A DNA stretch of 64,000 bases from an archaeon. Lineage in GTDB: Archaea; Iainarchaeota; Iainarchaeia; Iainarchaeales; GCA-2688035. Position 1 is the stretch's first letter. Each line of letters begins with the position of its first letter. The stretch is taken from the NCBI GenBank assembly GCA_041645325.1, contig JBAZQI010000001.1:8945-72944 (forward strand), given 5' to 3'. A program made the translations under genes and the position numbers. The notes under the pieces were generated by a model. The model did no database searches, had not been told where the DNA came from, and worked only from the letters and a program-made list of their open reading frames with translations. Shown here piece after piece: positions 3,457-53,350 of this stretch.

Positions 3457-3496
3457 GAACAGGGCTATTCGGTCACTCTTTTTGCAAAAAAGGCTT

Positions 3497-3572
3497 TTTT
3501 TTGCCTTAAAATAGCTTTAAATACAAGAAAACCCTAATTCTATTAAAAATTTCGAGGGAGGTGAAAAGCAAA
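3497..3572 (+). promoter_or_regulatory. conserved promoter/5' leader block (TATA-like TTTAAATACA + GGAGGTGA SD), duplicated at 4308-4375
   Basis: About 85% identity over roughly 70 nt between 3497-3575 and 4308-4378. Both end at the ATG of a membrane-protein gene. Confidence 0.55.
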
Positions 3573-4265: not shown

Positions 4266-4307
4266 ATATTTGGTTTAAAGCGAAGAACACCCTTTTTCTT
4301 TTTTTTT

Positions 4308-4375
4308 CACTAAAATAGCTTTTAAATACAGGAAAACCCTTTTATATCTAAAATTTCAGGGGAGGTGAAAAGCAA
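4308..4375 (+). promoter_or_regulatory. second copy of conserved promoter/leader block
   Basis: cactaaaatagcttttaaatacaggaaaaccc...ggggaggtgaaaagcaa matches the 3497-3572 block. Confidence 0.55.
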
Positions 4376-4702
4376 ATGGCAATTAAATCAATTACAAGGA
4401 TTGACCCTGTGCAGTACGGGAAAGTGCTGGCAGTGCTATTGGCAATTATATACCTGATTATGGGGCTAGTAATGACCCTGTTTATGGGATTGATTGGCGG
4501 AATCATGGCAATGATTCCAGAGGCTGGTGGCGGATCATTTGCCGGTTTCGGTGTCGGTCTCGGCATAGGCGGCGGCTTGGCAATGACCGTTGCCATGGTT
4601 ATTTTCGGAGCAATCTTTGGCTTCGTAATGGGCGTAATCGGCGCTTTCATCTATAATTTTGTCGCAAGCAAGGTAGGCGGAATAAAAATTGACCTTGAGT
4701 GA
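4376..4702 (+). CDS. small glycine-rich membrane protein
   Basis: 108 aa with two TM segments and a GxGxG-rich loop. Has a strong SD and the duplicated leader; followed by a T12 tract (terminator-like). Confidence 0.45.
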   Translation: MAIKSITRIDPVQYGKVLAVLLAIIYLIMGLVMTLFMGLIGGIMAMIPEAGGGSFAGFGVGLGIGGGLAMTVAMVIFGAIFGFVMGVIGAFIYNFVASKVGGIKIDLE

Positions 4703-4703
4703 A

Positions 4704-4740
4704 TGCTTTTCGCTTTCCCTTTTTCTTTTTTTTTTTTAAA
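4704..4740 (+). terminator. oligo-T tract (archaeal-type terminator) after 4376..4702
   Basis: ttttcgctttccctttttcttttttttttttaaaag contains a run of 12 T. Confidence 0.4.
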
Positions 4741-4856
4741 AGCCTTTTGCCGTGGGCAAAAGCCTTGGGAAAAAGCTTCGCAAAAAAACAGGCAAAGCCA
4801 CCGCACCTGCGAAGCAAACCAATTAAATACATTCCAGCTCAAAATTCATTATTCGT

Positions 4857-5071
4857 GCCGGCGTGGCTGAGCTCGGTTGAAGGTGCTCCGCTCGAAAAGG
4901 CCTTTTTTCCTGCTGGAAAAAAGCCTTGGGAAAACCCAAATTGCTGATGCAATTTGAGGCCTTTTCTTAGAAAGAAAAGCCCTGGGAAAAGAAAGCAATG
5001 CTGATGCATTGCTAAACGCGAGGAACGGAGTAGGTCGAAAGGCCTCACAGGTTCAAATCCTGTCGCCGGCG
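4857..5071 (+). tRNA. tRNA-Ser(CGA), class II, with a ~128-nt intron at 37/38 (4897-5024)
   Basis: Acceptor GCCGGCG/CGCCGGC. D-arm GCT-GAGCTCGGTTGAA-GGT. Anticodon stem CTCCG(4886-90)/CGGAG(5026-30), loop CTCGAA|intron|A. Variable arm GGTC-GAAA-GGCC. T-arm ACAGG-TTCAAAT-CCTGT. Discriminator G. No encoded CCA. Confidence 0.6.
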
Positions 5072-5072
5072 A

Positions 5073-8757: not shown

Positions 8758-9534
8758 TTACCTGGTGTTCATGTTGATGTTCCCAAATCTTCTGTTTCTT
8801 TCATCGATGTTTGATATTGCTGCATTTAGCGCTCTCGTTTTCGCACGGTGTTGAATGTAAGGCTTTAACGAATTAAGCAATTCAACAAGGTAAAATTTTT
8901 TGCTTATTACCAAACTCCAGTAATCTCCATTGTGCACGTATCCTTCGCGGGTAACATATCCTTTCCTTGCACCAAGACACAACTTTCTGCATTTTATCCC
9001 GAATTTTGGAAGTGTTTCAAGTATTTTTTCTAATAATGCTTTGTCATAATTTCCCAAAGCATAAACTGCCTGCCCTTTGGAAATGCCAATGTGCCCCTCT
9101 GCGTCTGTAAATCCCGCTAAAAAGGAGAAGAAAACATCTTCTTTTTGGAAGATCCAATCTGGGGCAACTTTACTTAATAAGAAGCTAAAACTTAAGGGGA
9201 GACCAACTCCGATACTTTTGGCTCCTCGTTTGTTTTTCTTTGAGATCCAAAGTGTAGAATACTTTTGGAACATGCTTTGAATCAGTTGCAGTTGTTCTTC
9301 TTTCGTTGTGCCGCATTCAATTGAGATTGTTTCACTATTTTTACCGCCTGTTCTTGCTCTCAAATCACCTATCCTAAAGCCAATTAGGTAAGCCTTTTCC
9401 AACAAATTGCCGCTAAAATCCTTCCGAGGATAAATCATTTGAGCACCCGCAGGGGTTCTTGTTTTTATCCCGTACTCTATCAATTTCTGTGCACAGTGCT
9501 TCTTGAAAATCCATATAGCTTTTCTATTTCCCAA
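8758..9534 (-). pseudogene. LAGLIDADG homing endonuclease domain (two motifs), 3' part of a frameshifted HTHx4-LAGLIDADG gene
   Basis: LIGFRIGDLRAR and LAGFTDAEGHIGISKG motifs. Its first residues (KKHCAQKLIEYGIKTR) complete the fourth HTH repeat of the upstream ORF in another frame. Confidence 0.7.
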
Positions 9535-10690: not shown

Positions 10691-13600
10691 ATGGCGCTTG
10701 AGGAAGATGCTGATGATGAATCTGATTTTTCCCCTGATTTTTCTGCAAAAGCGGGGAAGGCTGGTGCGAAGCAAATTTCCCCTGATGAGGGAAGCGAAAG
10801 CCCCTATGTTTCCAAGTTTCTTGAATTTTTTGAGGCCAATTACAAGAAGGAATTGGAGCGGCTTGTTGAAAACTATCCTGACAAGAGAAGCCTTGAGGTT
10901 GACTTCAGGCTGCTTGAGCAGTTTGACATAGAGCTTGCGGACGCGATTTTGGACTCTCCTGACCTGCTGCTTGAAGCCGCAAAGGACGCGATTGAGCAGA
11001 TTGAGGTTCCTGCGCTTGAAATTGAAATCTTTTCTCCGCATGTGCGCTTTTTCAACATCCCGAAAGAGCATGAGCCTTTGGTGAGGGACATAAGCGCTGC
11101 ACAGCTTGGAAAGTTTATTGCGGTTGAAGGTGTTGTAAGGCAGATTACCACTGTGCTGCCAAAGCTCAAGGTTGCGGTGTGGAAATGCAGGCACTGCGGC
11201 AACACTTACGAGAAAGTGCAGGATGACCAGCAGCTCAAAATGCCTTCTTTCTGCGAATGCAGGCACAGGGACTTTGACCTTGTGCCGGAGCAATCCGAGT
11301 TCATTGACAGCCAGCGTGTTGAAATACAGGAGCCCTTGGAAAGGCTGAAGGGAAACGAGCAGGCCTCTACATTGCAGGTATACATTGCCGACGACCTTGT
11401 CAACAGGATAAGTGCAGGGGACAAGACAAGATTTACAGGGGTACTGAGGCTTGCGGTGCCGGACAAGAAGAAAACAGTTTACGGCAGGTACCTTGAGGCC
11501 TTTCATTTGGAGGAAACCCAGCGCGAATTCCTTGACGTTGAGATATCGCCTGAAGAGGAAAAGGAAATAAAGGATTTGGCGTCAAGCCCTGACATTTATG
11601 AAACGCTTATAAAAAGCATTGCGCCCGCAATTTACGGCCACGAAAAGGTCAAGGAATCAATCATCCTGCAGTTGTTCGGCGGCGTCAAGAAGAACCTGCC
11701 CGGCAACCAGACTGTGAGGGGAAACATCCACGTTTTGTTGGTGGGTGACCCTGGTTGCCTTGTTGCTGATGAAAGGATTGTGCTTGGCAATGGTGCAATT
11801 GAAAAAATCGGCAGCATTGGTTCAAGGCACTTGGAGGAAATAAACCTGCAGGTGCTCACAGGGCAGGGTGGCGCGAAAAGGGATACAGCAACTGTTTTCC
11901 ATTATTACAAGAGCCAGCCTGTGATTGAAATAGTTACAGAGAGTGGAAAAAGCATCAAGGGAACGCCAAACCACCCTCTTCTGTGCATTTCAAAAGAAAA
12001 CAGCCGTGTTGCAAGAAATTGGAAGCGCCTTGACGAATTCAGAGAAGGGGACAAGGTTGCGGTAGTGACTGGAATTCCCTGCACGATTACCCGTTACATT
12101 GAGACTGGCTTTAACCAATTGCCGCCTATTGGCGGGAGCAAATTCAAGGGTTCCTTACCTGAAAAGGTTACACCGGAGCTGGCTTCTTTTTTGGGTTATA
12201 TGGTTGGAGACGGCTGGGTTAGAAACTATGAAACGGCCTTTGTTGTGGCGGATAATGAAAAAGAGCTGTTGGAGCCGCTTCTCAAAATGTGTGAAAACCT
12301 GTTTGCGATAAAATCCTCTGTTGTAAGAAGAAAGCTTGAGGGAAGAAAAGTCTGGCTGAATTATGCAAGCATTTATTCGAAAAGCATTTCGCAAAACTTG
12401 CTCTTTTTGAGGGAAAAGCGTGTTCCAAACCCCATACTTAAGTCAGGCAACAAGGTTGTGGCATCCTTTTTGAAATGGCTTTTTACCGCAGACGGTTGCG
12501 TTTTCAACAATGGGCGGGGGAGGAGAGCTGTTTCATTTAAGGCAAAAAATATTGAACTGCTAAGGGACCTGCAAGTGCTTCTCCTCAGGTTTGGCATTCA
12601 CGGCAGAATAACTGGGAATTCACTTCAAATAAGGCGGGGCAGGGACATCATAAAGTTTGCGAAAAAAATCGGGTTTGCTTCAAAAAAGAAACGGGCTACA
12701 CTAAAAAAACTCGCGGAAGAAGCAAAGTCTTTTGCAGGGTTTAATTCCCAACGAAGCGAAAAAATAGTAAAAATTATTCAGCATGAGCCGGAAGATGTTT
12801 TTGATATTGAAGTTCCTGGCAGTCATCGTTTCATAGCAAACGGTGTCATCTCGCACAACACAGGCAAATCTCAGCTTCTTCAGGCCGCAAACACCATTGC
12901 GCCCAAAAGCATTTACACCGCGGGAAAAACCACGAGCGGCGTTGGATTGTGCATTGCGCCTGATTCTTTGGTGCTGAATGGCAATGGCTTTAAGAGGATT
13001 GAAGACTTTGTTGAAGAAAATTTCTGCAATGAAAAAGCGTTTGAGGAAATTCCCGGCGCATGGTCAAATATTTTTGATGGAAAGAGCCTTTCTTTGGACA
13101 ATGGGCTAAAAGCCGAAGAGGGAAAAATTTCCAAGATTTGGAGGCTAAAAGCCCCTGAAAAAATGTTTAGGGTGAAGACAAGGCTCGGAAAGGAGCTTGA
13201 GCTCACGCCGCATACTTCTCTTGTTAGACTAAAAGAGGGCAATGTTGGCTGGGTTGAGGCGCAGGAAATAAGCGAAGGCGATTTCATTGCCTGCGCAAGA
13301 AAACTGCCTGAAGGCGGCAGAAAAAACATTCCTGCAATCGGCATAATTGCGCATGACAAAAACGTGCGGATAAAGGACAATGTTGCAGTGCAATTGAAGG
13401 AAATAACCGACGGGCTTATGGCAAAGTACGGTTCTTTGCAGGAAATAGCCAAAAGCATTGGCAAAAGCAGGAATACGCTTTATTCAATCAGGAACAAAAA
13501 ATTCTATCACGGCATTTCTTTGAAGAATTTTGTTGAACTTGGCAAAGAGGCAGGATTTTCATTGGAAGCGCTTTCAGGGTGTGTTTCCACGATTTTCATA

Positions 13601-15577
13601 AGCTATGGAAAGGAAATGAAAATTCCGCGATATTTGGATAACGAGCGGCTTGCTTATTTGGCCGGCTTGGCTTTGGGTGACGGCAGCCTGTATGAGGCCG
13701 ATAGAAGTGCGTCTTTGAGGATTTTCAGCGCTTCACCGCAGCTTTTGCAGGAAGTTGACAACATTGCCCTGGATTTGTTTGGCTTGGAAGCTGAGAAGAT
13801 TGATGATGGAGTCAGGGTTCCTGCCAGGAGAATAAAATTCAGGGCTGTTTGTGAGCTTTTGAAGGCATTTGGCCTGGATAAAAGGAAAGGCAAAATAAGA
13901 ATTTCGCATCTTGCCTCGGAAATGCCTAACAATATTCTTTCAAAGCTCTTGCAGGGCTTGTTTGACACCGACGGCTGGGTTTGCAGTGGCAAAGACAGTC
14001 ACTGCATTGGCATGACAACGATTAGCAGGGATTTGGCGCAAAGCGTGCAGCTTTCTTTGCTAAAATTCGGCATCAGAAGCAAATTAAGGGAAAGAAAGAA
14101 AGCCGGCGTGCTTGCCGTTGGCAGAAAAATCTCTGTCACAAGCAGGCACAATCAGTATTGCATTGAAATAATGGGCAAAGAAAGCGTTGGGCTGTTCAAA
14201 GAGCACATCGGATTCAACCTTGCGCGAAAAAAAGAGAAATTGCAGGAACTTGCAACAAGCGTTCCAAAAGGCAACACAAACATTGATGTTGTTCCGCAAA
14301 TTCAAAGCCTGCTGAAAGCGGAGAAAGCAGAGTGGATTTACAGCAGTGGCAGGTCAAACATTTCAAAGGAAAAGCTGCAAAGGCTTGCAGGCGAGCAAGC
14401 ACTTGGCAATTCATTGTTGAAGCAATTGGCGGAATCTGATGTGATGTGGGAGCAAGTTGCGGAAAAGGTTTGCATAGAGTCGGCATACCCTTTTGTTTAT
14501 GATTTCTCGGTTGAAAAAAACCATAATTTTGTTGCAAACGGAATTTTTGTGCACAACACTGCATCTGCAGTCAAGGACGATTTTGGCGAGGGCGGCTGGA
14601 CATTGAAGGCTGGTGCGCTTGTTTTGGCCAGCGGCGGGGTTTGCATGGTGGATGAGCTTGACAAGATGGAGGCAGAGGACAGGAGCGCAATGCACGAGGC
14701 AATGGAACAGGGCATGATTTCAATAGCAAAGGCTGGCATTGTCACAAGGTTCAAGTCCGACACAAGCATCTTGGCCGCGGCAAACCCAAAGATGTCAAGG
14801 TTTGAGCCCTACCAGCCTTTCATTGAGCAGATTAATTTGCCGGCTTCGTTGATTTCAAGGTTTGACCTTTTCTTCATGATAAAGGACGTTTTGGACAAGA
14901 CAAAGGACGAGGCAATCACGGCGCACATCCTCAAAACGCACAAGGGCGGGGAAATGATTTCACAGTACAAGCAAAAGGGCAGGGTCATGCTGAAACAAGA
15001 CCAGGATGACATTGACCTTATTTCCTCGCCGCCGATACTGCCGGAATTGCTGGGAAAATACATTTCCTATGCAAGGCAAAACGTTTTCCCGATAATGAGC
15101 AAGGAGGCAATACAGCTCATTGGTGATTTTTACATCGGGCTGAGGGACATTGGGCGAAAAGAGGGAAGCTATGCGGCAACCCACAGGCAGCTTGAGGGCC
15201 TTGTAAGGCTTTCAGAGGCAAGCGCAAGGGTGCGCTTAAGCGACATTGCGGAAAAAGAGGACGCTGAAAGGGCAATAAGGCTTGTGAAGGCTTCTTTGAG
15301 CGATGTTGTCACAGACCCTGAAACAGGCAAGATTGATTATGACATCATTATGACCGGGCAGACTCACACCCAAGTTACGAACATGCGCAAAATCCTCACC
15401 ATCCTGAGGGAAAAGGCGAAAGAGCAGGACAATGTGCCGTTGCAGGATGTGCTCAACGAAGCTTCTGTGCAGGGAATTGACGCGGAAAGGGCGCGTGACC
15501 TCATAGCAAAGCTCGAAAAAAACGGCGAGCTCTACAGGCCAAGGCACAATTTCCTCAAGCCGACGAGAAACGAGTAA
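10691..15577 (+). CDS. mcm: MCM replicative helicase precursor carrying two inteins (mature about 724 aa)
   Basis: N-terminal OB/zinc (CRHCGN..CECRH). Walker A GDPG|intein|TGKSQLL. Walker B/arginine-finger region GALVLASGGVCMVDELDKM after the second intein. C-terminal wHTH. Confidence 0.9.
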   Translation: MALEEDADDESDFSPDFSAKAGKAGAKQISPDEGSESPYVSKFLEFFEANYKKELERLVENYPDKRSLEVDFRLLEQFDIELADAILDSPDLLLEAAKDAIEQIEVPALEIEIFSPHVRFFNIPKEHEPLVRDISAAQLGKFIAVEGVVRQITTVLPKLKVAVWKCRHCGNTYEKVQDDQQLKMPSFCECRHRDFDLVPEQSEFIDSQRVEIQEPLERLKGNEQASTLQVYIADDLVNRISAGDKTRFTGVLRLAVPDKKKTVYGRYLEAFHLEETQREFLDVEISPEEEKEIKDLASSPDIYETLIKSIAPAIYGHEKVKESIILQLFGGVKKNLPGNQTVRGNIHVLLVGDPGCLVADERIVLGNGAIEKIGSIGSRHLEEINLQVLTGQGGAKRDTATVFHYYKSQPVIEIVTESGKSIKGTPNHPLLCISKENSRVARNWKRLDEFREGDKVAVVTGIPCTITRYIETGFNQLPPIGGSKFKGSLPEKVTPELASFLGYMVGDGWVRNYETAFVVADNEKELLEPLLKMCENLFAIKSSVVRRKLEGRKVWLNYASIYSKSISQNLLFLREKRVPNPILKSGNKVVASFLKWLFTADGCVFNNGRGRRAVSFKAKNIELLRDLQVLLLRFGIHGRITGNSLQIRRGRDIIKFAKKIGFASKKKRATLKKLAEEAKSFAGFNSQRSEKIVKIIQHEPEDVFDIEVPGSHRFIANGVISHNTGKSQLLQAANTIAPKSIYTAGKTTSGVGLCIAPDSLVLNGNGFKRIEDFVEENFCNEKAFEEIPGAWSNIFDGKSLSLDNGLKAEEGKISKIWRLKAPEKMFRVKTRLGKELELTPHTSLVRLKEGNVGWVEAQEISEGDFIACARKLPEGGRKNIPAIGIIAHDKNVRIKDNVAVQLKEITDGLMAKYGSLQEIAKSIGKSRNTLYSIRNKKFYHGISLKNFVELGKEAGFSLEALSGCVSTIFISYGKEMKIPRYLDNERLAYLAGLALGDGSLYEADRSASLRIFSASPQLLQEVDNIALDLFGLEAEKIDDGVRVPARRIKFRAVCELLKAFGLDKRKGKIRISHLASEMPNNILSKLLQGLFDTDGWVCSGKDSHCIGMTTISRDLAQSVQLSLLKFGIRSKLRERKKAGVLAVGRKISVTSRHNQYCIEIMGKESVGLFKEHIGFNLARKKEKLQELATSVPKGNTNIDVVPQIQSLLKAEKAEWIYSSGRSNISKEKLQRLAGEQALGNSLLKQLAESDVMWEQVAEKVCIESAYPFVYDFSVEKNHNFVANGIFVHNTASAVKDDFGEGGWTLKAGALVLASGGVCMVDELDKMEAEDRSAMHEAMEQGMISIAKAGIVTRFKSDTSILAAANPKMSRFEPYQPFIEQINLPASLISRFDLFFMIKDVLDKTKDEAITAHILKTHKGGEMISQYKQKGRVMLKQDQDDIDLISSPPILPELLGKYISYARQNVFPIMSKEAIQLIGDFYIGLRDIGRKEGSYAATHRQLEGLVRLSEASARVRLSDIAEKEDAERAIRLVKASLSDVVTDPETGKIDYDIIMTGQTHTQVTNMRKILTILREKAKEQDNVPLQDVLNEASVQGIDAERARDLIAKLEKNGELYRPRHNFLKPTRNE
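11756..12859 (+). mobile_element. intein 1 (368 aa) inserted in the MCM P-loop, with LAGLIDADG homing-endonuclease domain
   Basis: Begins with Cys directly after GDPG and ends ...VISHN followed by T. Internal motifs LGYMVGDGWV and LKWLFTADGCV. Confidence 0.85.
12950..14557 (+). mobile_element. intein 2 (536 aa) in MCM AAA+ core, with LAGLIDADG domain
   Basis: Begins CIAPDSLVL... and ends ...GIFVHN followed by T. Motifs LAGLALGDGSL and LQGLFDTDGWV. Confidence 0.85.
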
Positions 15578-17336: not shown

Positions 17337-17575
17337 TAAGCCTTTCTTTCTAAAGAAAGAAAGCCTTGGGAAAGAAAGAAGCCTTTTTTGCTTGGGCAAA
17401 AAAGCCTTGGGAAAGAAAGAAGCCTTTTTTGCTTGGGCAAAAAAGCCTTGGGAAAAGAAATTTTCCCTTTTTTTTTCGCCAGCCCCAAGCAAAGCATGGC
17501 TTTGCGGGCCTCGTACCCTGCAGGGCACTCGGTTTTTCCAAAAGGCTGTTGGGAAAAACGCCTTCGGCAAAAGGG
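17337..17575. repeat. array of AAGCCTTGGGAAAG / GCTTGGGCAAAA modules plus palindromes upstream of aIF2-beta
   Basis: (aaagccttgggaaagaaagaagccttttttgcttgggcaaaa) occurs twice plus a partial copy. Palindromes ctttctttctaaagaaagaaag, gcaaagcatggctttgc and ccctgcaggg are also present. Confidence 0.65.
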
Positions 17576-17620
17576 TTAAAAATGCTCGCAGGGGTTAATT
17601 GGTTTATAGGCCAAAAAGTG

Positions 17621-18034
17621 ATGAAAATGGATTATGATAAAATGCTTGAGCGGCTTTACGCAGGGCTTCCTGAGAGCACAAAAAAGCATGAGCGTTTTGA
17701 GATGCCGCTTGCGGATTCTTTTGTGCAGGGCAATAAGACCATCATAAAGAATTTTTCGGCAATTCTCAAGGCAATAAACAGGGATGGCAAGCACATGTTC
17801 AAGTTCATTGCAAAGGAAACAGCCACCTCCGCCGCAATTGATGACAACAACAGGCTTGTTTTGAGCGGAAAGTTTGACCATGGGCAGGTTAACGGCCTTA
17901 TAACGAGCTATGTCAACCAGTTTATTCTGTGTCCGGAATGCAAGAGGCCTGACACAAAGGTAATGGAAAAGCAGGGCATCAGGATGCTGAAATGCGAGGC
18001 CTGCGGCGCAATAAGCAGCGTAAAAGGGCTTTGA
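17621..18034 (+). CDS. eif2b: translation initiation factor aIF2 beta subunit
   Basis: C-terminal zinc ribbon CPECKRPDT...CEACGA. The ORF-track extension upstream of 17621 is repeat-encoded and is rejected. Confidence 0.85.
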   Translation: MKMDYDKMLERLYAGLPESTKKHERFEMPLADSFVQGNKTIIKNFSAILKAINRDGKHMFKFIAKETATSAAIDDNNRLVLSGKFDHGQVNGLITSYVNQFILCPECKRPDTKVMEKQGIRMLKCEACGAISSVKGL

Positions 18035-19939: not shown

Positions 19940-20029
19940 GCCAAATCACTATCTAATAGATTGTGCTTTTCTGCTTTAAAGACAATGCAGGAGCACGTTG
20001 CTATTCGTTAGCATTCTGCCGAAGGCACT

Positions 20030-20110
20030 TTTTCCCATGGCTTTTTTGCTCAAACCTTTTAGCAAAAGGTTTACGAAAAATGTTTCGCAAGCAAAAAAGG
20101 CTTTTGCCTA
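20030..20110. repeat. hairpin-module repeat region (AAAGGCTTTT family)
   Basis: aaaccttttagcaaaaggttt, cgaaaaatgtttcg and aaggcttttgcctaagc hairpins. Confidence 0.45.
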
Positions 20111-30825: not shown

Positions 30826-30942
30826 AAGCCTTTTTGCTTCGGCAAACCTTAGAGATGCTTTGGCATCTCTTACGGTTTCTGAACCTTACAGGTTCAGAAA
30901 AAGCCTTGGGAAAAAAACGCGCCTGTTGGCGCTAAGGCTTTT
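30826..30942 (+). repeat. full-length copy (~115 bp) of AAGCCTTGGGAAAA hairpin-module element
   Basis: aagcctttttgcttcggc-aaaccttagagatgctttggcatctcttacgg-tttctgaaccttacaggttcagaaa-aagccttgggaaaaaaacgcgcctgttggcgctaaggcttttt. About 88% identical to the reverse complement of 36455-36576. Confidence 0.75.
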
Positions 30943-31864
30943 TCTTCGCCCAAAAGTCAATTACCATCTGCTGGATTTTTGGGGAAAAGCTCCTTACCTT
31001 TTCCGCCCTCAAAACCTTTGTTTCAAAGCCAAGTTCTTGCGCCGCCCCTTCAATTTCCGCAATCGCCTGCTCCGCTCCCCTGTCCCTTTCCACGAACCTG
31101 TAAAAGTGCACAATTCCCCCTTCAGGCTTCAGCGCCATCAGCGCCTCCTGCAGGAAATTTTCCCCGCCTTTTGGCAAGGGCATAACAACGCGGTCGCATT
31201 TTCCAGCAAGCCTTTCAGGAACAATTTTTTTCACATCCCCAAAAATCGGCTCTATTTTGCCCTGGCACTTGTTCAGCAAAATGTTATGTAGCATTTCCCT
31301 GTGGGCTTCCGGGTTGAGCTCTATGGCATAAGCCTTTTTCATTCCCGAAAGCCTGGCAAAAACTATTGGAAATGGCCCAACACCGGCAAAAAATGCGCCG
31401 ATTTCCTCGTTTTCTTTTATCAGCCCCGCAATCCTTTGCCTTTCCGTGCTTAATCTCGGGCTGAAGAAAACCCTGCCCAAGTGCACCTCAAACCTGCAGC
31501 CGCTTTCCTTGTATGCCGCAACCTTTGACTTTTTTCCGGCAACAACCTTTACAGGCTGAACCCTGTACTTTCCCTTGTGCTCCCCTGAAATCATGCACAC
31601 TGTTTCAAAATGCCTGTTCATGGAAAGCAATGCCTCGCCAATGACCTTTGCCTTTTTTTCAAGCCCTTTTGGCACCTGTATTACCGCAATGTTCCCTACT
31701 GAGTCAAAGCTGGCAATAAGCTTTTCCATTTCCTTTTTGGAAAGCTTTCCCTTCAGGGCCTCCTTGAGGTTGCGCGGCTGCCTTTCATCCCGCCCGTAAT
31801 GCGATTTTTTTCCCACGGCCTTTTTTGCCTGGTGTTTTGAAGCCGGCTTTTTTTCCTTGCTCAT
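30932..31864 (-). CDS. Trm5/TYW2-family SAM-dependent tRNA methyltransferase
   Basis: Met-10+ domain, FFAGVGPFPIVFA SAM motif and a lysine-rich N-terminus. Confidence 0.7.
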   Translation of the reverse strand: MSKEKKPASKHQAKKAVGKKSHYGRDERQPRNLKEALKGKLSKKEMEKLIASFDSVGNIAVIQVPKGLEKKAKVIGEALLSMNRHFETVCMISGEHKGKYRVQPVKVVAGKKSKVAAYKESGCRFEVHLGRVFFSPRLSTERQRIAGLIKENEEIGAFFAGVGPFPIVFARLSGMKKAYAIELNPEAHREMLHNILLNKCQGKIEPIFGDVKKIVPERLAGKCDRVVMPLPKGGENFLQEALMALKPEGGIVHFYRFVERDRGAEQAIAEIEGAAQELGFETKVLRAEKVRSFSPKIQQMVIDFWAKKKP

Positions 31865-31906: not shown

Positions 31907-32740
31907 ATGGACCTCTCGGCTATTTTGTACGATTTTTTTGGCAGCAGGATTGCCGGCCACGGCCTGTACAGCCCTGTTGAATACCTTGTCTACGGCGCAA
32001 TAATGCTTGCGCTCCTTTTCTTCATAATTTTCCCGCTGCTTGACAGGAGGGGCGTAAAATTCAGCGAAAAATTTGCGCTTGCCCTATTGCCCTACGTTCT
32101 CCTCGGTTCTGCCCTGCGAGTGCTCGAAGATATGTCTTTCCTGCCGCGCAGCTGGAATCCCCTGGAGGCAGGCTACTATTTTGTAACGCCTGGCATTTAC
32201 CTTTTCATTGCCATTGTGGCAATTGCCGCGCTTTTGGTTTCGCTTTTTGCCTCAAAAAAATTCAGGGTTTCTTTTTACAAAATTTTTGCTGCCATTGGCC
32301 TTGTGCCGGCCATTCCCCTGCTGTTTTTTGAAATGCTGAACTTCAGGGCATGGCTCGGAGTTCTTGAAGTATTGCTGTTCGCATTCGCAACAGTTGCCTT
32401 GCTTGTCTTTGCTTTCAAAAAGCTGAAAAAGCAAATCCTTGAAAGCGGCCTGAACCGGCTGGGTGTCGCTTCGCAGGCCCTTGACGGATTTGCAACCCTT
32501 GTCGCAACGCAGTTTTTTTTCTGCGGCGAGCAGCATCCCCTGTCCGGTTTTTTGCTGGACTTTTTTCCCCTAAGCTTTGTCATTGCAAAGCTCGGCCTTG
32601 TGCTCCTGATTTTGTATTACGTGGACAGGGAGATAAAGAATGAAAACTTGCGCGGCTTCATAAAGCTTGTGATAATAGTGCTTGGCTTTGCCACAGGCCT
32701 GCGCGATTTGTTAACCTTGGGTGTGGGCACCTGCCTTTGA
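31907..32740 (+). CDS. polytopic membrane protein (archaeal DUF63-like)
   Basis: 277 aa with 6-7 TM segments. Confidence 0.5.
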   Translation: MDLSAILYDFFGSRIAGHGLYSPVEYLVYGAIMLALLFFIIFPLLDRRGVKFSEKFALALLPYVLLGSALRVLEDMSFLPRSWNPLEAGYYFVTPGIYLFIAIVAIAALLVSLFASKKFRVSFYKIFAAIGLVPAIPLLFFEMLNFRAWLGVLEVLLFAFATVALLVFAFKKLKKQILESGLNRLGVASQALDGFATLVATQFFFCGEQHPLSGFLLDFFPLSFVIAKLGLVLLILYYVDREIKNENLRGFIKLVIIVLGFATGLRDLLTLGVGTCL

Positions 32741-32789: not shown

Positions 32790-32965
32790 TTTGCGAAGCA
32801 TTTTTCCCAAGGCTTCCGAGTACCCTGCGGGGTACGAGGCAAGAAAAGCTGTTGCTTTTCTATGTTTTGCTGTTGCAAAAAAGGCTTTGCGCGAAGCGCA
32901 TTTTTCCCAAGGCTTTTTTGCTGTTGCAAAAAAGGCTTTTTGATGAAACTTTTTTTCAAAAGTTT
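32790..32965. repeat. inverted-orientation copies of TTTTCCCAAGGCTT repeat with hairpins
   Basis: gcatttttcccaaggcttccgagtaccctgcggggtacgagg ... gcgcgaagcgcatttttcccaaggcttttttgctgttgcaaaaaaggc. Confidence 0.6.
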
Positions 32966-32983: not shown

Positions 32984-34654
32984 TTATCCCCTCAGTGCCC
33001 GCATTACCGCAAGCAGGCCTATTATCATTGCCGCCAAAAATCCGGCTGCGCCTATGTCAGCCGTGTTTCCCATTGCGGTTTGGATGTTTGTGAACAGCAT
33101 TATTCCGGAACCAAGGATGAGCGCCGACACTATGAGGCTTATGCTTATGGTGTTGCTGCTTTTTTTGAGGCTCCTGCTCAGCTCGTCAATGTTTTTGGCT
33201 TCTATCGAAACCTTGAGGTCGTCTTCCTCAAGCTTTTTGAATATTTTTAACATGCTTTCCGGAAGCCTTTTTATGAGCCTGTCGAATTCAAAGTAGTTGT
33301 CCCTGAAGGCCCTGATTAGATAACCCGGCTTGGTTTTTTCTTCCATTATTTTTTGGATATATGGCGTTGCCTTTTCAACGAGGTTGAAGTTCGGATCAAG
33401 CGTTTCCACCGTGTTCTGGGCAACGCTTATGCTTCTCAGGAAAAGAAGGTATTCCTGCGGAACCCTTGCCTTGTGCTTTACCATTGCCCTTATCAAGGCG
33501 TTTCCAAACCCTTCAAAGTCTATTTTTTCGTAGCCTATGTCGTAAAAATAGTCCATTATGTCCGCGAGGTCCAGCATGAATTTTTGCTCGTCGTCAAGGC
33601 TGTCAATGACACCCATTGCCTGCAACTGCCTTGTCAGGCCCTTTACGTTTCTTTCAACTATCAGCACAATCATTGCCGCAACGTTGTTTATTGATTCCTC
33701 GTTCAGCCTGCCTATCATGCCGAAATCAACAAGGCTCAGTATCGGCTTGTTTTTGCGGATGTGCACAAAAACGTTTCCGGGGTGAGGATCTGCCTGGAAA
33801 AAGCCGTAGACAAGCATCTGCCTGAAAAAGCAGTCCGTGTAAAGGCTTGCAATCTCTTTTTTGAGCTGGCTTTTCTTGCTGTGAAAAAACTTGCTTATTT
33901 TCCTGCCCTGCACCCTTTCAAGCGTCAAAACCTTCGCTGTGCTGTAATCCCTGTAAACCTTTGGAATCACAATGTTTGCATCATTCCTGAAGTTCATTCC
34001 AAAGTGCTCGGCGTTGGTGGCTTCCCTCTTGTAGTCAAGCTCTTTCATTATTGTTTCGCCGAATTCCTTGGCTATGTTTGTCGGATTGTAGTAGTGCGTT
34101 TCCGTGATGTTTTTCTCGACAAGCTCTGCAATGAACTTCATTATGCGGAGGTCTTCCCCGATAATGCGCGTTATGTTGGGCCTCTGCACTTTGACCGCAA
34201 CACGCCTTCCGTTGTGCATGGTTGCAAGGTGCACCTGGCCTATTGATGCCGCGGCAACCGGCGTTTTTTCAAAGTGCTTGAATAGCGTGTCAACCGATTT
34301 GCCGAGCTCTTCCTTTATGATTTTCTCGGTCTCCTCAAAAGGAAAAGGCGGTACGTTGTCCTGAAGCTTTTTCATCTCTTCAATGTACTCTTCTTTCACA
34401 AGGTCCGGCCTTGTGCTCAGCATCTGCCCGAATTTTATGAACGTGGGGCCGAGCTCTTCAAAGATTTTGCGCAGTTTCACAGGCCCAGGGATTTCTTCCT
34501 TGCATTCCTCGCTTCCCTCAAGGCATTTCAGGAAGGGGTACTTTCCCTTCATCTGCGTTACTTCCCTCGAGGTCTCCCATCCATACTTGAGGAAAACCCT
34601 CATTATTTCAAGGAATCTCTTAATGTCCCCCGGCGTCTCAAGAAAGCTGAGCAT
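32984..34654 (-). CDS. ABC1/UbiB-family atypical kinase
   Basis: AAASIGQVH, VAVKVQRP and HADPHPGN motifs. Two C-terminal TM helices. Confidence 0.85.
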   Translation of the reverse strand: MLSFLETPGDIKRFLEIMRVFLKYGWETSREVTQMKGKYPFLKCLEGSEECKEEIPGPVKLRKIFEELGPTFIKFGQMLSTRPDLVKEEYIEEMKKLQDNVPPFPFEETEKIIKEELGKSVDTLFKHFEKTPVAAASIGQVHLATMHNGRRVAVKVQRPNITRIIGEDLRIMKFIAELVEKNITETHYYNPTNIAKEFGETIMKELDYKREATNAEHFGMNFRNDANIVIPKVYRDYSTAKVLTLERVQGRKISKFFHSKKSQLKKEIASLYTDCFFRQMLVYGFFQADPHPGNVFVHIRKNKPILSLVDFGMIGRLNEESINNVAAMIVLIVERNVKGLTRQLQAMGVIDSLDDEQKFMLDLADIMDYFYDIGYEKIDFEGFGNALIRAMVKHKARVPQEYLLFLRSISVAQNTVETLDPNFNLVEKATPYIQKIMEEKTKPGYLIRAFRDNYFEFDRLIKRLPESMLKIFKKLEEDDLKVSIEAKNIDELSRSLKKSSNTISISLIVSALILGSGIMLFTNIQTAMGNTADIGAAGFLAAMIIGLLAVMRALRG

Positions 34655-36353: not shown

Positions 36354-36434
36354 AGCCGCCACAGCCGGCTGGTCTGAGTGCCATCTTCGCGCCTTTGTGG
36401 CGCTCGATGCCACAGGCTCGTTGTTGCTCGCCAA
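36354..36434 (+). repeat. family-2 repeat copy A (AGCCGCCACAGCCGGCTGGT ... GGCTCGTTGTTGCTCGCCAA)
   Basis: Conserved 5' and 3' ends shared with copies at 39356, 39755 and 53277. The central hairpin is gcgcc-tttgt-ggcgc. Confidence 0.6.
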
Positions 36435-36454: not shown

Positions 36455-36576
36455 CCGGGCTTTGCGCCATCAGGCGCATTTTTCCCAAGGCTTTTTCTGA
36501 ACCGGTAAGGTTCAGAAACCGTAAGAGATGCCAAAGCATCTCTAAGGTTTTCCGCAGAAAAAAGGCTTTGCGCCCT
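36455..36576 (-). repeat. full-length copy of AAGCCTTGGGAAAA element (reverse orientation)
   Basis: Reverse complement aligns module by module with 30826-30942, including the agagatgc/gcatctct and tctgaacc/ggttcaga hairpins. Confidence 0.75.
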
Positions 36577-39355: not shown

Positions 39356-39439
39356 AGCCGACACGTCCGGCTGGTACGAGCAAGGGCCCTATTTCGCTCC
39401 CTTTTGGTCGCTCAATAGGGCGGCTTCGCTGGCAAGTCC
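39356..39439 (+). repeat. family-2 repeat copy D (diverged 3' end)
   Basis: agccgacacgtccggctggtacgag ... central hairpin ccctatt/aataggg. Lies 4 nt after the Sm stop. Confidence 0.55.
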
Positions 39440-39541: not shown

Positions 39542-39613
39542 GGGCCCTTGGTCTAGTGGTATGATGCTCGGTTGGCAATCGGGAGGTCGCGGGTTCAATT
39601 CCCGCAGGGTCCA
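39542..39613 (+). tRNA. tRNA-Ala(GGC)
   Basis: Acceptor GGGCCCT/AGGGTCC with the G3:U70 alanine identity pair. Anticodon loop TTGGCAA. T-arm GCGGG-TTCAATT-CCCGC. Discriminator A. Confidence 0.85.
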
Positions 39614-39639
39614 AAACCCATTGAGCCCAAGCGAAATGG

Positions 39640-39732
39640 GTTCTCCTGTGGCAGTTGTAATTTTCCAAAGGCTTTTGTGCAACAGCCTTTAACAAAGGCT
39701 GGCGAAAAATGCTTCGCGAGCACAAAAGGCTT
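39640..39732. repeat. AAGGCTTTT-family hairpin modules inside the insert downstream of tRNA-Ala
   Basis: ttccaaaggcttttgtgcaacagcctttaacaaaggctggcgaaaaatgcttcgcgagcacaaaaggctttt. Confidence 0.55.
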
Positions 39733-39754
39733 TTCAATTCCCGCAGGGTCCAAA
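39733..39754 (+). repeat. 22-bp duplicate of the tRNA-Ala 3' end (ttcaattcccgcagggtccaaa)
   Basis: Identical to 39594-39615. Lies 117 bp downstream of the tRNA. Confidence 0.75.
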
Positions 39755-39823
39755 GCCGCCACTGCCGGCTGGTCAGGGTACGATTGCCTTCGGCAATCCT
39801 ACAGGCTCGCTATTGCTCGCCAT
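39755..39823 (+). repeat. family-2 repeat copy B
   Basis: gccgccactgccggctggtcagg...gattgcc-ttc-ggcaatc...ggctcgctattgctcgcca. Confidence 0.6.
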
Positions 39824-39932: not shown

Positions 39933-41597
39933 ATGGTTTCCAAAAAGGAGCTTCTTTTGAAGAGCATCCGCGAACTGCTCGCCTTGAACGTTTCCGACAA
40001 GGAAATAGCGATGAACCTCAAAGAGGTTGGCATTGACGAGGCCAATGCAAAAGCCCTTATTCTTGAGGCAAGGCAGCCAGAGGCGCCTGCGCAGGCCCAG
40101 GAGCCTGAGGCAAAGTCTGTTCCTTTCTTTGGCGGCTTTGGGCTGAAAAAAGAGGGCAAAAGCGTTTCGCCTGAAGAAGAGGCAAAAGAGGTTGTGGCTG
40201 AAAGGGAGCAGGCGACTGAAGACCTTGCTGCCGAATCCGTTGAGGGTGAAGAAGAGCCTGAAGGAGGGTCGGAAGAGATTGCGGAAGGCCTTGGCTTTTG
40301 GGACAAATCCGGGGAAAAAAAGCCGGCTAAGGGCAAGGCGGAAAAGAAAGCGCCTTTTGCCTCCGTTGAAACGCCGCCGCTTGGGATTTTTAAAAAAAAT
40401 TCCCTTGATTCGGAGGACGGGGCGGATGAAGCAGGCGAGGATGCCCCTGCAAGAAAAGAAAAGCCAAGCCTTGTCGAGGACATCCTGGTGAGCAAGCTTT
40501 GGGAGAAAGGAATTTTTGCAACCGTAAACCAGAAGCTTGCTGAAATGGAAGACCTCAGAAGGGACCTTGATGCTGTGCTTGACAAAAAGGTTGCGGATGC
40601 AAGCAAAAGGGAAATGGAAAAAATAAAGGTTTTGTTTGACAGCCAGCGCGCGCTTTTGGTGAGCAAGGTTGATTCCGAGCTTGAGGCAAAGGCAAAGGGC
40701 TTTGCGGAAATGATTGAGATGAAGCTCAGGGAAATGCGGGGCATAAACAAGCAGATTGCCTCCCAGATTGAAACAGTGAAGGAAATGGAGCGCGGCTCAA
40801 AGGTCAGTGCCGATGCCATTTCACAAAGGCTGGAGGAAGCCGACAAGCTCAAGGAACGCATTCTCTCCTCGCTGAACGGCGAGCTCATAAACACCAGGAG
40901 CGAAAGCAGGTCCCTTGTGGAGGAAATGGGCAAAAAGCTCGGTGACATGGATGAAAGGATAAACAAGACGCTGCAGCTTGAAAACCAGATTGTTGAAGGG
41001 CTTGTCAAGGAAGCCGAGCGCAGGGTTGTAGCCCTGCTTGAGGAAAAGTCCGCAGAGTTTTCAGCCGAAACCAAGAGTAGAATCGAGGATATTGGAAAAC
41101 TCAAGGATTCCTTCAAAGCGGCCCAAAAAGCCGAGTTTGCAGAGACCGAAGAGGGCATTGCCGCAAAGCTTTCCTTGTTTGAGGAAATGATTGGCAAAAA
41201 CGGCCGGGCCCAGAAGGCCGAGCTTGCAAAGGCGGAAGAGGGCATTGCCGCAAAGCTTTCCTTGTTTGAGGAAAGGGCTGACAAAAAGCTTGAGGCGCTG
41301 GACAAGCTGCAAAAGCAGATTTCCCTGGATTTCAAGCCTGAAAAATTCAGGCAGACAATGCAGGAGCTCAACGAGTTCAAGGCCCAGTTCGTTGACGCAA
41401 TAAAGCAGAACGCCGAAAGCTTCAACGAGGGAATAAAGAATCTGAACCAGCAAAGCCAGGTGATTGAAAGGCAGTTCATGTTACGTGCGGAAAAAATAGA
41501 CAAAAAGATTGCGGAACTCGATGCCTTTGAAAAAAGTTTCGCAAAAGAAATGGGCCTTGCAATAGAAAAAATCCCGAAAAAGGGCAGCGGGAAATAG
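39933..41597 (+). CDS. long coiled-coil protein with acidic N-terminal region and internal 29-aa tandem repeat
   Basis: 554 aa with predicted heptad-rich sequence. A 40-bp perfect DNA direct repeat at 41148-41187 and 41235-41274 encodes EEGIAAKLSLFEE. Confidence 0.55.
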   Translation: MVSKKELLLKSIRELLALNVSDKEIAMNLKEVGIDEANAKALILEARQPEAPAQAQEPEAKSVPFFGGFGLKKEGKSVSPEEEAKEVVAEREQATEDLAAESVEGEEEPEGGSEEIAEGLGFWDKSGEKKPAKGKAEKKAPFASVETPPLGIFKKNSLDSEDGADEAGEDAPARKEKPSLVEDILVSKLWEKGIFATVNQKLAEMEDLRRDLDAVLDKKVADASKREMEKIKVLFDSQRALLVSKVDSELEAKAKGFAEMIEMKLREMRGINKQIASQIETVKEMERGSKVSADAISQRLEEADKLKERILSSLNGELINTRSESRSLVEEMGKKLGDMDERINKTLQLENQIVEGLVKEAERRVVALLEEKSAEFSAETKSRIEDIGKLKDSFKAAQKAEFAETEEGIAAKLSLFEEMIGKNGRAQKAELAKAEEGIAAKLSLFEERADKKLEALDKLQKQISLDFKPEKFRQTMQELNEFKAQFVDAIKQNAESFNEGIKNLNQQSQVIERQFMLRAEKIDKKIAELDAFEKSFAKEMGLAIEKIPKKGSGK

Positions 41598-44350: not shown

Positions 44351-44956
44351 ATGGGCGCAGCAAAGCACATTCAGGAAACGTTCCAAAAGGAATTCAAGGG
44401 CCAAAAGGACGACTTGTTCAACTACAAGGCCTTGCAGAGCGAGCGCCTGATAGGCTTCAGGAAGGAAAAAAAATCCGTTGTGCGCCTGGAAAAGCCGACA
44501 AACATTGCCAGGGCAAGAACGCTTGGCTACAAGGCAAAAAAGGGCTTCGTTGTTGCAAGGGTCAGAATCAGAAAAGGAAGCGGCCTGCACAGAAGGCCTG
44601 TTTCGGGAAGAAGGCCAAAAAGAATGGGCACCCAAAAGCTCACAAGAAGGCAGAACATCCAGGCAATGGCCGAGCAAAGGGCAAGCAGGAAATTTGAAAA
44701 CTGTGAAGTGCTTAATTCTTATTACATTGGCGACGACGGCAAGATGCATTATTACGAGGTCATTCTTGTTGATACCTCAGCGCCGGAAATAAAATCCGAC
44801 AGGGAAATAAACTGGATTTGCGATCCAAACCAGAGGGGCAGGGCATTCAGGGGCCTGACAAGCAGGGGCAAGAAAAGCAGGGGCCTGCGCAGAAAAGGCA
44901 ACGGCGCGGAAAAAATCAGGCCTTCTTTGAGAGCGCACCACAGGCAAGCAAAATGA
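44351..44956 (+). CDS. rpl15e: 50S ribosomal protein L15e
   Basis: Basic 201 aa with L15e blocks (ARVRIRKGSGLHRRPVSGRRPKRMG...). Confidence 0.85.
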   Translation: MGAAKHIQETFQKEFKGQKDDLFNYKALQSERLIGFRKEKKSVVRLEKPTNIARARTLGYKAKKGFVVARVRIRKGSGLHRRPVSGRRPKRMGTQKLTRRQNIQAMAEQRASRKFENCEVLNSYYIGDDGKMHYYEVILVDTSAPEIKSDREINWICDPNQRGRAFRGLTSRGKKSRGLRRKGNGAEKIRPSLRAHHRQAK

Positions 44957-45004: not shown

Positions 45005-45658
45005 ATGAATCTGCCGACGCGCGAACAATGCCTTGCATTGCTTGAAAAATACAATATTCCCAGGCACATTGTAAGGCACTCGCTTGCGGTTGAAAGGGTT
45101 GCGGTTTTTCTTGCAAAAAAATTCAACGAAGCAGGCATTCCAGTGGATGCCGGGCTTGTGAGCAGGGGCGCGCTCTTGCATGACATTGACAAGATTGAAA
45201 CCTTGAAAGAGGGCTTTGGGCACCTGCACGGCAAAATGGGCAGGGAAATCCTTGAAAAAGAGGGCTTTCCTGAAATCGGAAAAATTGCGGAGGCGCATCA
45301 TTTGGAAAGGGTGCTTTCTCTGAAGCCTTTTTTCCCGCGGGAAAAAAGCCTTGGGAAAAGTGCGCCTGTTGGCGCAAAGCCTTTTTTGCTTGGGCAAAAA
45401 AGCCTTGGGAAAAGTGCGCCTGTTGGCGCAAAGCCTTTTGACTGCTGGGAGGAAAAGATTGTTTATTATGCCGACAAGCGCGTCAACCACGACAAAATTG
45501 TTTCCCTTGACGAGCGTTTTGATTATTTGCTCAAAAGATATGGCATTGAAAAGGGCATTCGCCGCACATTCCTGCATTGCAAACCTCTTGTGGAAAAGCT
45601 TGAAAAGGAGATTTTCTCAAAAATAGATGCAGGTCCTGAATTGGAGGGATTGTCTTGA
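45005..45658 (+). CDS. HD-domain phosphohydrolase carrying an in-frame repeat-element insertion
   Basis: H..HD..K metal motifs (RHSLAVE, LLHDIDK, YYADKRVNHD). Residues encoded by 45323-45440 (KSLGKSAPVGAKPF, twice) derive from the AAGCCTTGGGAAAA repeat. Confidence 0.7.
   Translation: MNLPTREQCLALLEKYNIPRHIVRHSLAVERVAVFLAKKFNEAGIPVDAGLVSRGALLHDIDKIETLKEGFGHLHGKMGREILEKEGFPEIGKIAEAHHLERVLSLKPFFPREKSLGKSAPVGAKPFLLGQKSLGKSAPVGAKPFDCWEEKIVYYADKRVNHDKIVSLDERFDYLLKRYGIEKGIRRTFLHCKPLVEKLEKEIFSKIDAGPELEGLS
45323..45440 (+). repeat. two tandem partial copies of AAGCCTTGGGAAAA-GTGCGCCTGTTGGCGCAAAGCCTTTT module, in-frame within the HD gene
   Basis: Direct sequence repeat with ttttcccgcgggaaaa and gcgcctgttggcgc palindromes. 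Confidence 0.75.
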
Positions 45659-53276: not shown

Positions 53277-53350
53277 AGCCGTCACGTCCGGCTGGTACGG
53301 GCACAACCTCGCTTGGGCTCGGTTGAGCCGGCTCGCTGCTGCTCGCACTT
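53277..53350 (+). repeat. family-2 repeat copy C, bracketed by the 41-bp direct repeats
   Basis: agccgtcacgtccggctggtacggg...ggctcggttgagcc...ggctcgctgctgctcgca. Confidence 0.6.

Follow-up and report, generated by a model that had tools for sequence, protein, structure and literature searches.

A dispersed hairpin repeat inserted in frame in an HD-domain phosphohydrolase gene of an Iainarchaeales archaeon

How does a repeat come to lie inside a protein-coding gene without breaking its reading frame, and what becomes of the protein? The question is raised by a gene for an HD/HDIG phosphohydrolase in a 64,000-nt stretch of an archaeal genome of the order Iainarchaeales (contig JBAZQI010000001.1, positions 8,945 to 72,944; hereafter the window). 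A preliminary description had reported two tandem copies of a repeat module at 45323-45440 within the open reading frame (ORF) 45005-45658, adding about 39 residues without a break in the frame, and had likened them to Rickettsia palindromic elements (RPEs). Based on the results below, we consider it likely that a member of a dispersed hairpin family entered this gene, that the insert is translated as a tolerated disordered loop, and that it behaves as a coding minisatellite.

The ORF indeed continues uninterrupted through the repeat, which is translated as ...LERVLSLKPFFPREKSLGKSAPVGAKPFLLGQKSLGKSAPVGAKPFDCWEEK.... The two tandem copies were confirmed by Tandem Repeats Finder (45323-45439: period 54, 2.2 copies, 92% matches) and by the 40-mer named in the preliminary description, which occurs exactly twice (45346-45385 and 45400-45439; 0 expected in shuffled sequences). 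The start at 45323 is therefore retained, while the end is corrected by one base to 45439. The residues are added as described, their number being somewhat lower: the insert amounts to 108 nt or 36 aa in comparison with a 181-aa ortholog, and to 37 aa in comparison with 180-aa orthologs. It is flanked on both sides by the 9 nt AAGCCTTTT. Each unit consists of AAGCC, a T6-apex-A6 hairpin (hairpin A), GCCTTGGGAAAAGT, a second hairpin GCGCC-TGTT-GGCGC (hairpin B) and a final A. The gene and the parts of its insert are as follows.

45005-45658 (+): HD/HDIG phosphohydrolase gene of 217 aa carrying the insert (ORF list, Pfam HD, NCBIfam HDIG).
45323-45331 (+): left 9-nt direct repeat AAGCCTTTT, native Lys-Pro-Phe codons and presumed insertion site (insert-free relatives L003 and L004).
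45332-45439 (+): inserted DNA, 108 nt or 36 codons in two 54-nt units, ending in the second AAGCCTTTT at 45431-45439 (DNA alignment of the window with L001, L002 and L003; blastn breakpoints).
45328-45347 (+): hairpin A1, TTTTTT-CCCGCGGG-AAAAAA (RNA and DNA folds; family-wide covariation at the stem top).
45348-45361 (+): conserved linker GCCTTGGGAAAAGT, coding for S-L-G-K; no other part of the family is as conserved (consensus of 200 unique copies; motif counts).
45362-45375 (+): hairpin B1, GCGCC-TGTT-GGCGC (folds), also present in the intergenic copies at 30918-30932 and 36464-36477 (repeat families D11, I4 and I5).
45382-45401 (+): hairpin A2, TTTTTT-GCTTGGGC-AAAAAA, with five apex positions different from A1 and the hairpin retained.
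45416-45429 (+): hairpin B2, identical in sequence to B1 (folds).

Folding of the insert gave four hairpins in a chain, with z-scores of −2.2 (RNA) and −3.6 (DNA), and the two units differ from each other by compensatory changes in the hairpin apex. The element is stop-free in all six frames; together with a copy length of 2 × 54 nt, this keeps the HD gene open.

Is the segment an addition to this gene, or do its relatives carry equivalent residues? A homolog search with the HD protein returned 1,450 sequences, nearly all of 176-188 aa. In an alignment of 113 sequences, 110 have no residues between ..LERVLS and KPFDCWEEK, in agreement with a separate alignment of 18 sequences. Extra residues were found only in the window protein itself (217 aa), in the near-identical P0002 (199 aa) and in P0003 (251 aa), which is 95% related. 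Further, the DNA of four relatives (L001, L002, L003 and L004) was compared at this site. It is empty in L003 (88% identity; ...CTT GAA AAG AGC CCT TTT GAT TGC TGG) and in L004 (85% identity; ...TCC CCG AAG CCA TTC GGT TGC TGG), while the window reads ...TCT CTG AAG CCT TTT [108 nt] GAC TGC TGG. The segment is thus an insertion relative to the family, as the preliminary description had supposed.

The filled site itself varies. L001 and L211 are parts of one ENA contig from a different sample and represent the same organism as the window, with 100% identity over 24.9 kb and three single-nucleotide polymorphisms over a further 20.6 kb. The sole length difference from the window is exactly one missing 54-nt unit; one event of slippage or recombination between the 40-nt exact repeats of the window would be enough to give the L001 allele. 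In L002 (approx. 95% identity), this position is occupied by a composite insert of 210 nt, which begins with the A2 apex and has the first hairpin and the last ~45 nt of the window insert, whereas the extra hairpins in between match the intergenic copy at 30826-30943. Insert-bearing alleles are present in three independent assemblies (the window contig and the ENA assemblies ERZ27249422 and ERZ4903072). According to this pattern of presence and absence among relatives, the site is filled only in one shallow clade and is variable there. As in coding minisatellites or variable number tandem repeats, the number of units, whose length is a multiple of three, varies between near-identical genomes (here a 54-nt or 18-codon unit in genomes that are otherwise 99.99% identical). 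In contrast to those, the unit in the HD gene was imported from a dispersed family and is not derived from the gene.

Since an insertion of this size might have damaged the enzyme, the state of the protein is of interest. The window protein is identical to NCBI MFA4855017.1 from an archaeal metagenome-assembled genome (MAG; P0001) and matches PF01966 in Pfam (E 1.5e-11) as well as HDIG (TIGR00277) in NCBIfam. All family-invariant residues of the 113-sequence alignment (H25, H59, D60, H98, D157, R159 and R171) are kept. No match was found in a PDB sequence search with the single protein, and a search with the family profile gave remote HD proteins only. An AlphaFold2 model built from the same 113-sequence alignment reached a mean predicted local distance difference test (pLDDT) of 89 and a predicted template modelling score of 0.84; among solved structures, the closest in fold are HD hydrolases of the YqeK and PgpH types, with low similarity. 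In the model, residues ~107-147 form a coil (pLDDT 51-54) flanked by helices 100-106 and 148-158, which places the insert in the loop joining the His98 helix to the Asp157 helix and agrees with the surface-loop position expected in the preliminary description. Judging from the model, the insert is most likely a floppy 36-residue surface loop which leaves the enzyme unbroken.

The surroundings of the gene are conserved in the order L15e, HD, Rpp14-like and proteasome alpha. The ratio of non-synonymous to synonymous substitution rates (dN/dS) in the codons flanking the insert is 0.31 between the window and L002, both of which bear the insert (17 synonymous and 21 non-synonymous changes), and 0.17-0.21 in comparison with insert-free relatives. 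The former value shows that the HD gene has been under purifying selection since the insertion, and this selection is perhaps somewhat relaxed.

Where did the inserted DNA come from? The core of the unit, AAAGCCTTGGGAAA, has 16 matches in the window with at most one mismatch, compared to 0.23 expected. Members of the family share an architecture of AAGCC, a hairpin of a T-run and an A-run, GCCTTGGGAAAA, and a second hairpin. Besides the insert, copies are located at 2573-2633, 4731-5001, 17338-17475, 20024-20105, 30826-30943, 32790-32949, 36458-36568 and 39655-39734, none of them in protein genes. Intergenic copies of the ~54-nt unit have 85-95% identity. The periods of the intergenic arrays are 41, 51, 54 and 56 nt, and the spacing in arrays overall is 41-57 nt. 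The following copies are relevant here.

30826-30943 (+): intergenic composite of an A hairpin, two more hairpins, a linker and a B hairpin; the closest relative in the window of the 210-nt insert of L002 (inverted pair I1 with 36474-36568: 95 nt, 94% identical; blastn match of L001).
36458-36568 (−): second full-length composite, intergenic and in the opposite orientation (repeat pairs, sequence).
32790-32949 (−): intergenic array between the convergent genes for a DUF63 protein (31907-32740, +) and an ABC1 kinase (32984-34654, −) (repeat families, Pfam).
17338-17475 (+): intergenic array of three 41-nt units upstream of the gene for aIF2-beta (17582-18034) (Tandem Repeats Finder; family D2; Pfam on 17354-18034; public gene call).
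2573-2633 (+): single module just upstream of, and antisense to, a KH-domain gene, crossed by the public gene call (repeat families, gene call).
4731-4790 (+): single module downstream of the gene at 4376-4702 (repeat families, sequence).

Two of these copies bear on a further claim of the preliminary description, namely that other ORFs are lengthened at their N-termini by the module. This is correct only for mechanical or automatic ORF calls: the open frame of aIF2-beta at 17354-18034 (+) reaches back through the array at 17338-17475 for approx. 75 codons, the public start being at 17582, and for the KH-domain gene (2044-2631, −) the public start codon is a TTG that lies within the module part at 2573-2606 or beyond it. 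The stretches concerned are upstream DNA rather than demonstrated protein.

Hairpin A is maintained across different apex sequences. Among 191 instances of hairpin A, 102 distinct apex sequences were counted. The top of the stem shows covariation, with a GC pair in 23 of the distinct 8-mers and a CG pair in 18; 95% are paired compared to 50% in shuffles, and TNCG accounts for 31% of the 4-nt loops. A statistic on the downstream hairpin is uninformative with a background of 92%. At gathering score, Rfam detected only the two intron-less tRNAs of the window and no family matching the repeat; at E ≤ 1, only sub-threshold noise was obtained over the insert and over 4700-5100.

A 17-mer scan covering one genome per species gave background singletons in bacteria and multiple matches in several Candidatus Iainarchaeum MAGs. 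At least nine loci were found in the “uncultured archaeon” MAG CAYHBD01, and multiple matches also in a few other DPANN MAGs. Loci from these MAGs have the repeat alone in common with the window at the DNA level. The pattern AAGCC T6 N7-10 A6 GCCTTGGGAAAA, with 29 specified bases, was matched by 96 metagenome stretches. Searches at the peptide level were less productive: a 41-aa query returned a single match from a word-indexed database, a spurious 48-aa ORF, and an exhaustive search of representative sequences returned three matches, two of which are unrelated repeat proteins. A full-text literature search yielded no description of such repeats in Iainarchaeia or Diapherotrites.

The element is gained and lost on short time scales, adjoins AAGCC-like sites and nests into existing copies. 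Another variable site is intergenic and lies directly behind the stop codon of L15e (window 44952-44956). It is empty in the window and in L003, holds a 35-nt single module in L004 (L004:~230-265) and a 136-nt composite in L002 (L002:2961-3101), which indicates either repeated insertion at one site or precise loss.

Are other genes affected in the same way? Six frames were scanned around 225 occurrences of the core in 0.7 Mb and candidates were checked by Pfam. The element was found inside the ORF of four real genes, namely the HD gene of the window, a Dus tRNA-dihydrouridine synthase gene of another species (L035), a class-I aminoacyl-tRNA synthetase gene (L020; 975 aa, with the insert after the anticodon-binding domain) and the gene of an HGSNAT-type membrane acyltransferase (L134; its Pfam domain spans 247 residues compared to 222 profile positions). 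About four of the ~170 arrays examined thus lie in genes. For two genes, HD and Dus, the in-frame insertion was checked against orthologs. Dus of L035 has 54 extra nt (..KPFFPLEKSLGKSAPDGANLL..), while orthologs at 94%, 88% and lower identity are insert-free (..ILGNKP-IAR..). The Dus of the window genome itself is probably P0128 (MFA4855382.1, from the same NCBI series as the window HD protein), which is insert-free. A further Dus protein, P0124, carries 108 extra nt: an additional 54-nt piece with two hairpins is nested in frame in the linker at GCCT|TGGG (L209:2222-2339). New modules seem to prefer existing copies as targets. The insert follows the TIM-barrel domain of Dus, and the alignment of Dus with PDB entries ended before it. 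The empty Dus site reads AAC AAA CCG ATT and the filled one starts with AAC AAGCC T6; hence, the element adjoins an AA(G/A)CC pentamer in both HD and Dus.

Whether the inserts are translated or removed from the RNA is a question of its own, because modules of the family also occur as tRNA introns. The window contains one example:

4897-5024 (+): 128-nt intron of two family units in a tRNA-Ser(CGA) gene at 4856-5072 (ARAGORN intron mode; relaxed bulge-helix-bulge motif).

This tRNA is missed by default ARAGORN and by Rfam, and the intron mode of ARAGORN labels the gene Pro(cgg). The long variable arm and the helix geometry identify it most likely as tRNA-Ser(CGA), with the intron after position 37. 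Under relaxed criteria, its bulge-helix-bulge (BHB) motif has an outer helix of 7 bp, a central CTCG/CGAG, the bulges AAA and GAA, and an intron of 128 nt. ARAGORN predicted 53 tRNAs over the collected loci (L112-L209, L014, L035 and L036), 30 of them with introns. Approximately 22 of these 30 introns begin, at or a few bases from the 5′ splice site, with (A)AGCC, a T-rich hairpin, GCC and TTGGGAAAA; since the loci were chosen for carrying the element, this is not an unbiased rate. Many of the introns are variants which the search pattern could not have selected. Introns of the module type are found in tRNA genes for Pro, Tyr, Gly, Ile, Ser, Glu, Leu, His, Thr, Asp and Ala, which looks like a lineage-wide spread of one intron family. 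Their 3′ tails are tRNA-specific and pair with the anticodon loop, and this pairing creates the BHB motif of the tRNAs.

Another tRNA of the window is also accompanied by modules. Downstream of tRNA-Ala(GGC) (39542-39613, +), approx. 120 nt with degenerate antisense modules are followed by a copy of the last 18 nt of this tRNA (CAATTCCCGCAGGGTCCA, 39733-39750) and by AAGCC. A tRNA of another species (L008:1150-1420) has the same layout as the window region 39542-39755. The arrangement recalls the attL and attR sites of an integrated element, yet the “cargo” consists of repeats only. Directly 3′ of the duplicated tRNA-Ala end lies one of four intergenic copies of a different hairpin, which is small and conserved, AGCCG-NCACNNC-CGGCT-GGT (family D17; 36354-36380, 39356-39382, 39754-39780 and 53277-53303, +).

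If the insert of the HD gene were an archaeal tRNA-type intron, a splicing endonuclease and the RtcB ligase would remove it from the mRNA, as in the Cbf5 pre-mRNA of Crenarchaeota, joining ...CTGAAGCCTTTT directly to GACTGCTGG... and leaving a protein of approx. 181 aa. Apart from the tRNA introns just described, the window tRNA-Ser(CGA) included, this idea draws on the known introns of archaeal protein genes, among them the BHB intron of the Cbf5 mRNA (PMC2738675), and on DPANN-type endonucleases, whose specificity can be broad (PMC3239211). BHB motifs were enumerated under relaxed criteria, as a strict version missed the tRNA-Ser control, whose intron has no inner helix. The relaxed criteria recover the tRNA-Ser(CGA) intron and miss the tRNA-Leu intron of L014, so that their sensitivity is imperfect. 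In the three HD alleles, this enumeration gave no motif excising 108, 54 or 210 nt; the sole candidate common to all three has a weak outer helix of 3 bp with two G-U pairs and would delete 21 native nt. Further, a tRNA-specific 3′ tail of the kind that forms the motif in tRNAs is missing from the HD insert.

The lengths and frames of the inserts are also informative. In contrast to the intergenic arrays with their periods of 41, 51, 54 and 56 nt, all measured coding inserts are multiples of three (HD: 54, 108 and 210 nt; Dus: 54 and 108 nt). The inserts of HD, Dus, the class-I synthetase and HGSNAT are all read in the frame ..KSLGK.., for which the chance would be ~(1/6)^3 = 0.005 if frames were random. 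Spliced introns need neither property. As all six frames are open, openness in itself says little on translation; however, ..KSLGK.. is the only frame which is both free of Cys and Trp and lowest in net charge, its peptide being rich in Pro, Gly, Ser and Lys. By eye, no genes split out of frame were seen around the ~170 arrays, only separate neighbouring genes and one false alarm. The locus L199, a candidate for a gene split by the element, was rejected since it contains a chance GCCTTGGGAAA within an intact ORF of the metallo-beta-lactamase fold. Taken together, the multiple-of-three lengths, the single shared frame and the absence of a fitting BHB motif in the HD alleles favour translation over splicing, and we regard removal of the HD insert from its mRNA as very unlikely.

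Based on these observations, we propose the following course of events. A family member would have inserted at a pre-existing AAGCC(T/A)TT site (Lys-Pro-Phe) of the HD gene, in the short loop between the His98 and Asp157 helices. The insert would be translated as a disordered surface loop rich in Lys, Ser, Gly and Pro, which the enzyme tolerates and which we infer to be neutral or nearly so. Once placed, it would act as a small coding minisatellite: slippage or recombination between the 40-nt exact repeats would remove or add units, and further modules may nest into it. For the arrival itself, microhomology-mediated copying at AAGCC(TTT) sites or a hairpin-recognising enzyme of the REP/RAYT kind (repetitive extragenic palindromes and their associated tyrosine transposases) appear to be the most plausible routes, which we offer only as a proposal.

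Several points weigh against this proposal. Translation of the insert is inferred, and the tRNA introns built of family modules mean that removal at the RNA level is not dismissible a priori. The search for coding inserts favoured in-frame cases, and the scan for split genes was judged by eye and not by homology. The synthetase and HGSNAT cases are based on ORF and Pfam evidence only, for HGSNAT just the domain span. The dN/dS of 0.31 derives from just 38 substitutions and exceeds the insert-free values, and the difference between one and two units, seen in short-read assemblies, could in principle be an assembly collapse. Neither a transposase nor terminal inverted repeats nor a clean target duplication came to light: among the called genes for window positions 691-55658 (55 kb) there is no transposase family (RAYT, IS200/IS605 or other), and instead of terminal inverted repeats, the copies in HD and Dus and the composite copies carry a direct motif, AAGCC... 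and ...AAAGCC, at their two ends. The 9-nt flanks AAGCCTTTT of HD overlap the element's own motif, the Dus insert has AAGCC at its left flank and AAACC at its right one, where the junction is diverged, and the L15e site is without a clear duplication.

Other origins and roles of the insert have to be considered as well. The repeat might be a mobile tRNA intron, or derived from one, that colonises tRNA intron sites, intergenic DNA and ORFs, or its ORF copies might be removed by an endonuclease of relaxed specificity. The tandem units of 41-57 nt have about the size of minimal introns (46-58 nt), which would be compatible with copying from intron RNA that was excised and circularised, or from multimeric intermediates; we think this possible, though unlikely. 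A selected function of the insert, either as a recruited protein segment (e.g., an interaction or localisation loop) or as a cis-acting RNA or DNA signal (attenuator, terminator or RNA-stability hairpins), could be deduced from the covariation of hairpin A across its 102 apex sequences and from the share of TNCG loops, both of which point to family-level selection on structure, and from the recurrence of one peptide frame in four genes. Selection against the five other peptides accounts equally well for this recurrence, the insert is unstructured in the model, and a segment that is missing from nearly all orthologs and measures 0, 54, 108 or 210 nt in close relatives has the pattern of a tolerated passenger; a function therefore appears quite improbable to us. 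The idea that the T6 tracts are internal terminators was dropped, as runs of at least six T on the sense strand are common in the genes of this genome (1.3 per kb).

An origin in place, by low-complexity or tandem expansion of the gene's own sequence through slippage at AAGCCTTTT, would agree with the native character of the flanking 9-nt repeat and with the variable unit number in near-identical genomes. However, slippage accounts for a change in copy number and not for the origin of a ~54-nt unit which also occurs in intergenic DNA of the window, in genes of other species, in tRNA introns and in the 96 metagenome stretches, nor for the modules of the L002 allele that match 30826-30943. We give this explanation hardly any weight. 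Least credible of all is a decaying pseudogene or an assembly artefact in which the repeat marks damaged or chimeric sequence. The genome is metagenome-assembled and tandem repeats are prone to mis-assembly, but the insert is found in three independent assemblies with conserved synteny, and the ORF is intact with its catalytic residues and a dN/dS of 0.31. The preferred explanation thus remains the in-frame insertion of a dispersed hairpin repeat.

How does this element relate to known systems? RPEs are conserved elements of ~100-150 bp, nearly half of which lie within ORFs (Ogata et al., 2000, as summarised in PMC10969869), and they are selfish hairpin repeats tolerated in frame in unrelated housekeeping genes (PMC10969869). 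The likeness drawn in the preliminary description holds for the mode of action: a dispersed hairpin repeat without a transposase of its own sits in unrelated housekeeping genes, in frame and in one particular frame, encodes a recurring peptide and occupies places where the fold tolerates it. It does not extend to membership. Its host belongs to the DPANN archaea, we claim no relationship in sequence, and the comparison uses the published size and ORF share of RPEs. The archaeal units are 35-54 nt long and modular, with conserved linkers and variable hairpins, only ~4 of ~170 arrays are genic, and the modules also make up tRNA introns, a trait that RPEs lack. This is an RPE-like in-frame insertion in an archaeon and not a member of the RPE family.

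With the RAYT-associated REPs and bacterial interspersed mosaic elements, and with prokaryotic miniature inverted-repeat transposable elements, the family shares short imperfect palindromes behind a conserved short motif (AAGCC here, GTAG in REPs), mosaic arrays mostly at gene ends, polymorphic presence, and new copies nested in old ones. It differs from these in having the same direct motif at both ends instead of terminal inverted repeats, in showing no clear target duplication of fixed length and, within the 55 kb with gene tables, no transposase, as well as in its archaeal host and its occurrence in tRNA introns and ORFs. Archaeal introns are the third point of comparison. In Thermoproteales, introns spread between tRNA genes by intron transposition (PMC4090602). 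As with those introns and the Cbf5 mRNA intron (PMC2738675), one family is found across many tRNA genes at position 37/38, with a copy within a protein-coding gene. In contrast, the HD copy has no BHB motif fitting its boundaries and keeps the frame, and most copies of the family are intergenic without a tRNA context.

Some further features of the window were noted. The gene for the MCM helicase (10691-15577, +; 1628 aa) contains two intein/LAGLIDADG insertions according to precomputed Pfam matches, and a free-standing ORF with a weak LAGLIDADG match (8758-9438, −) lies just upstream of it. At 41120-41287, a tandem duplication of 87 nt (29 codons, 87-88% identity) is located within a 554-aa ORF (+, ~39933-41597) without a Pfam match. 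Two neighbouring genes are each directly preceded by one copy of a 79-nt direct repeat (3494-3572 and 4298-4376; 77% identity) with a TTTAAATA box and GGAGGTGA, which resembles a duplicated promoter or leader.

In Rickettsia and a few other bacteria, genes colonised in frame by selfish hairpin repeats are a textbook oddity. In-frame insertion as such therefore has precedent, and the interest of the present case is its archaeal setting, alleles in transition, and modules identical to tRNA-intron sequences. An RPE-type phenomenon in a DPANN archaeon is caught in progress here, with empty, one-unit, two-unit and composite alleles and at least two ortholog-verified genes. For annotation, it is a warning: repeats lacking stop codons lengthen ORF calls and make default tRNA finders overlook tRNAs with introns. 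Should the repeat be a mobile tRNA intron after all, or should its ORF copies be removed from mRNA, the mobility of tRNA introns would be directly tied to the remodelling of protein genes. The modules shared with tRNA introns offer a system for asking how archaeal tRNA introns spread and whether they seed new protein segments.

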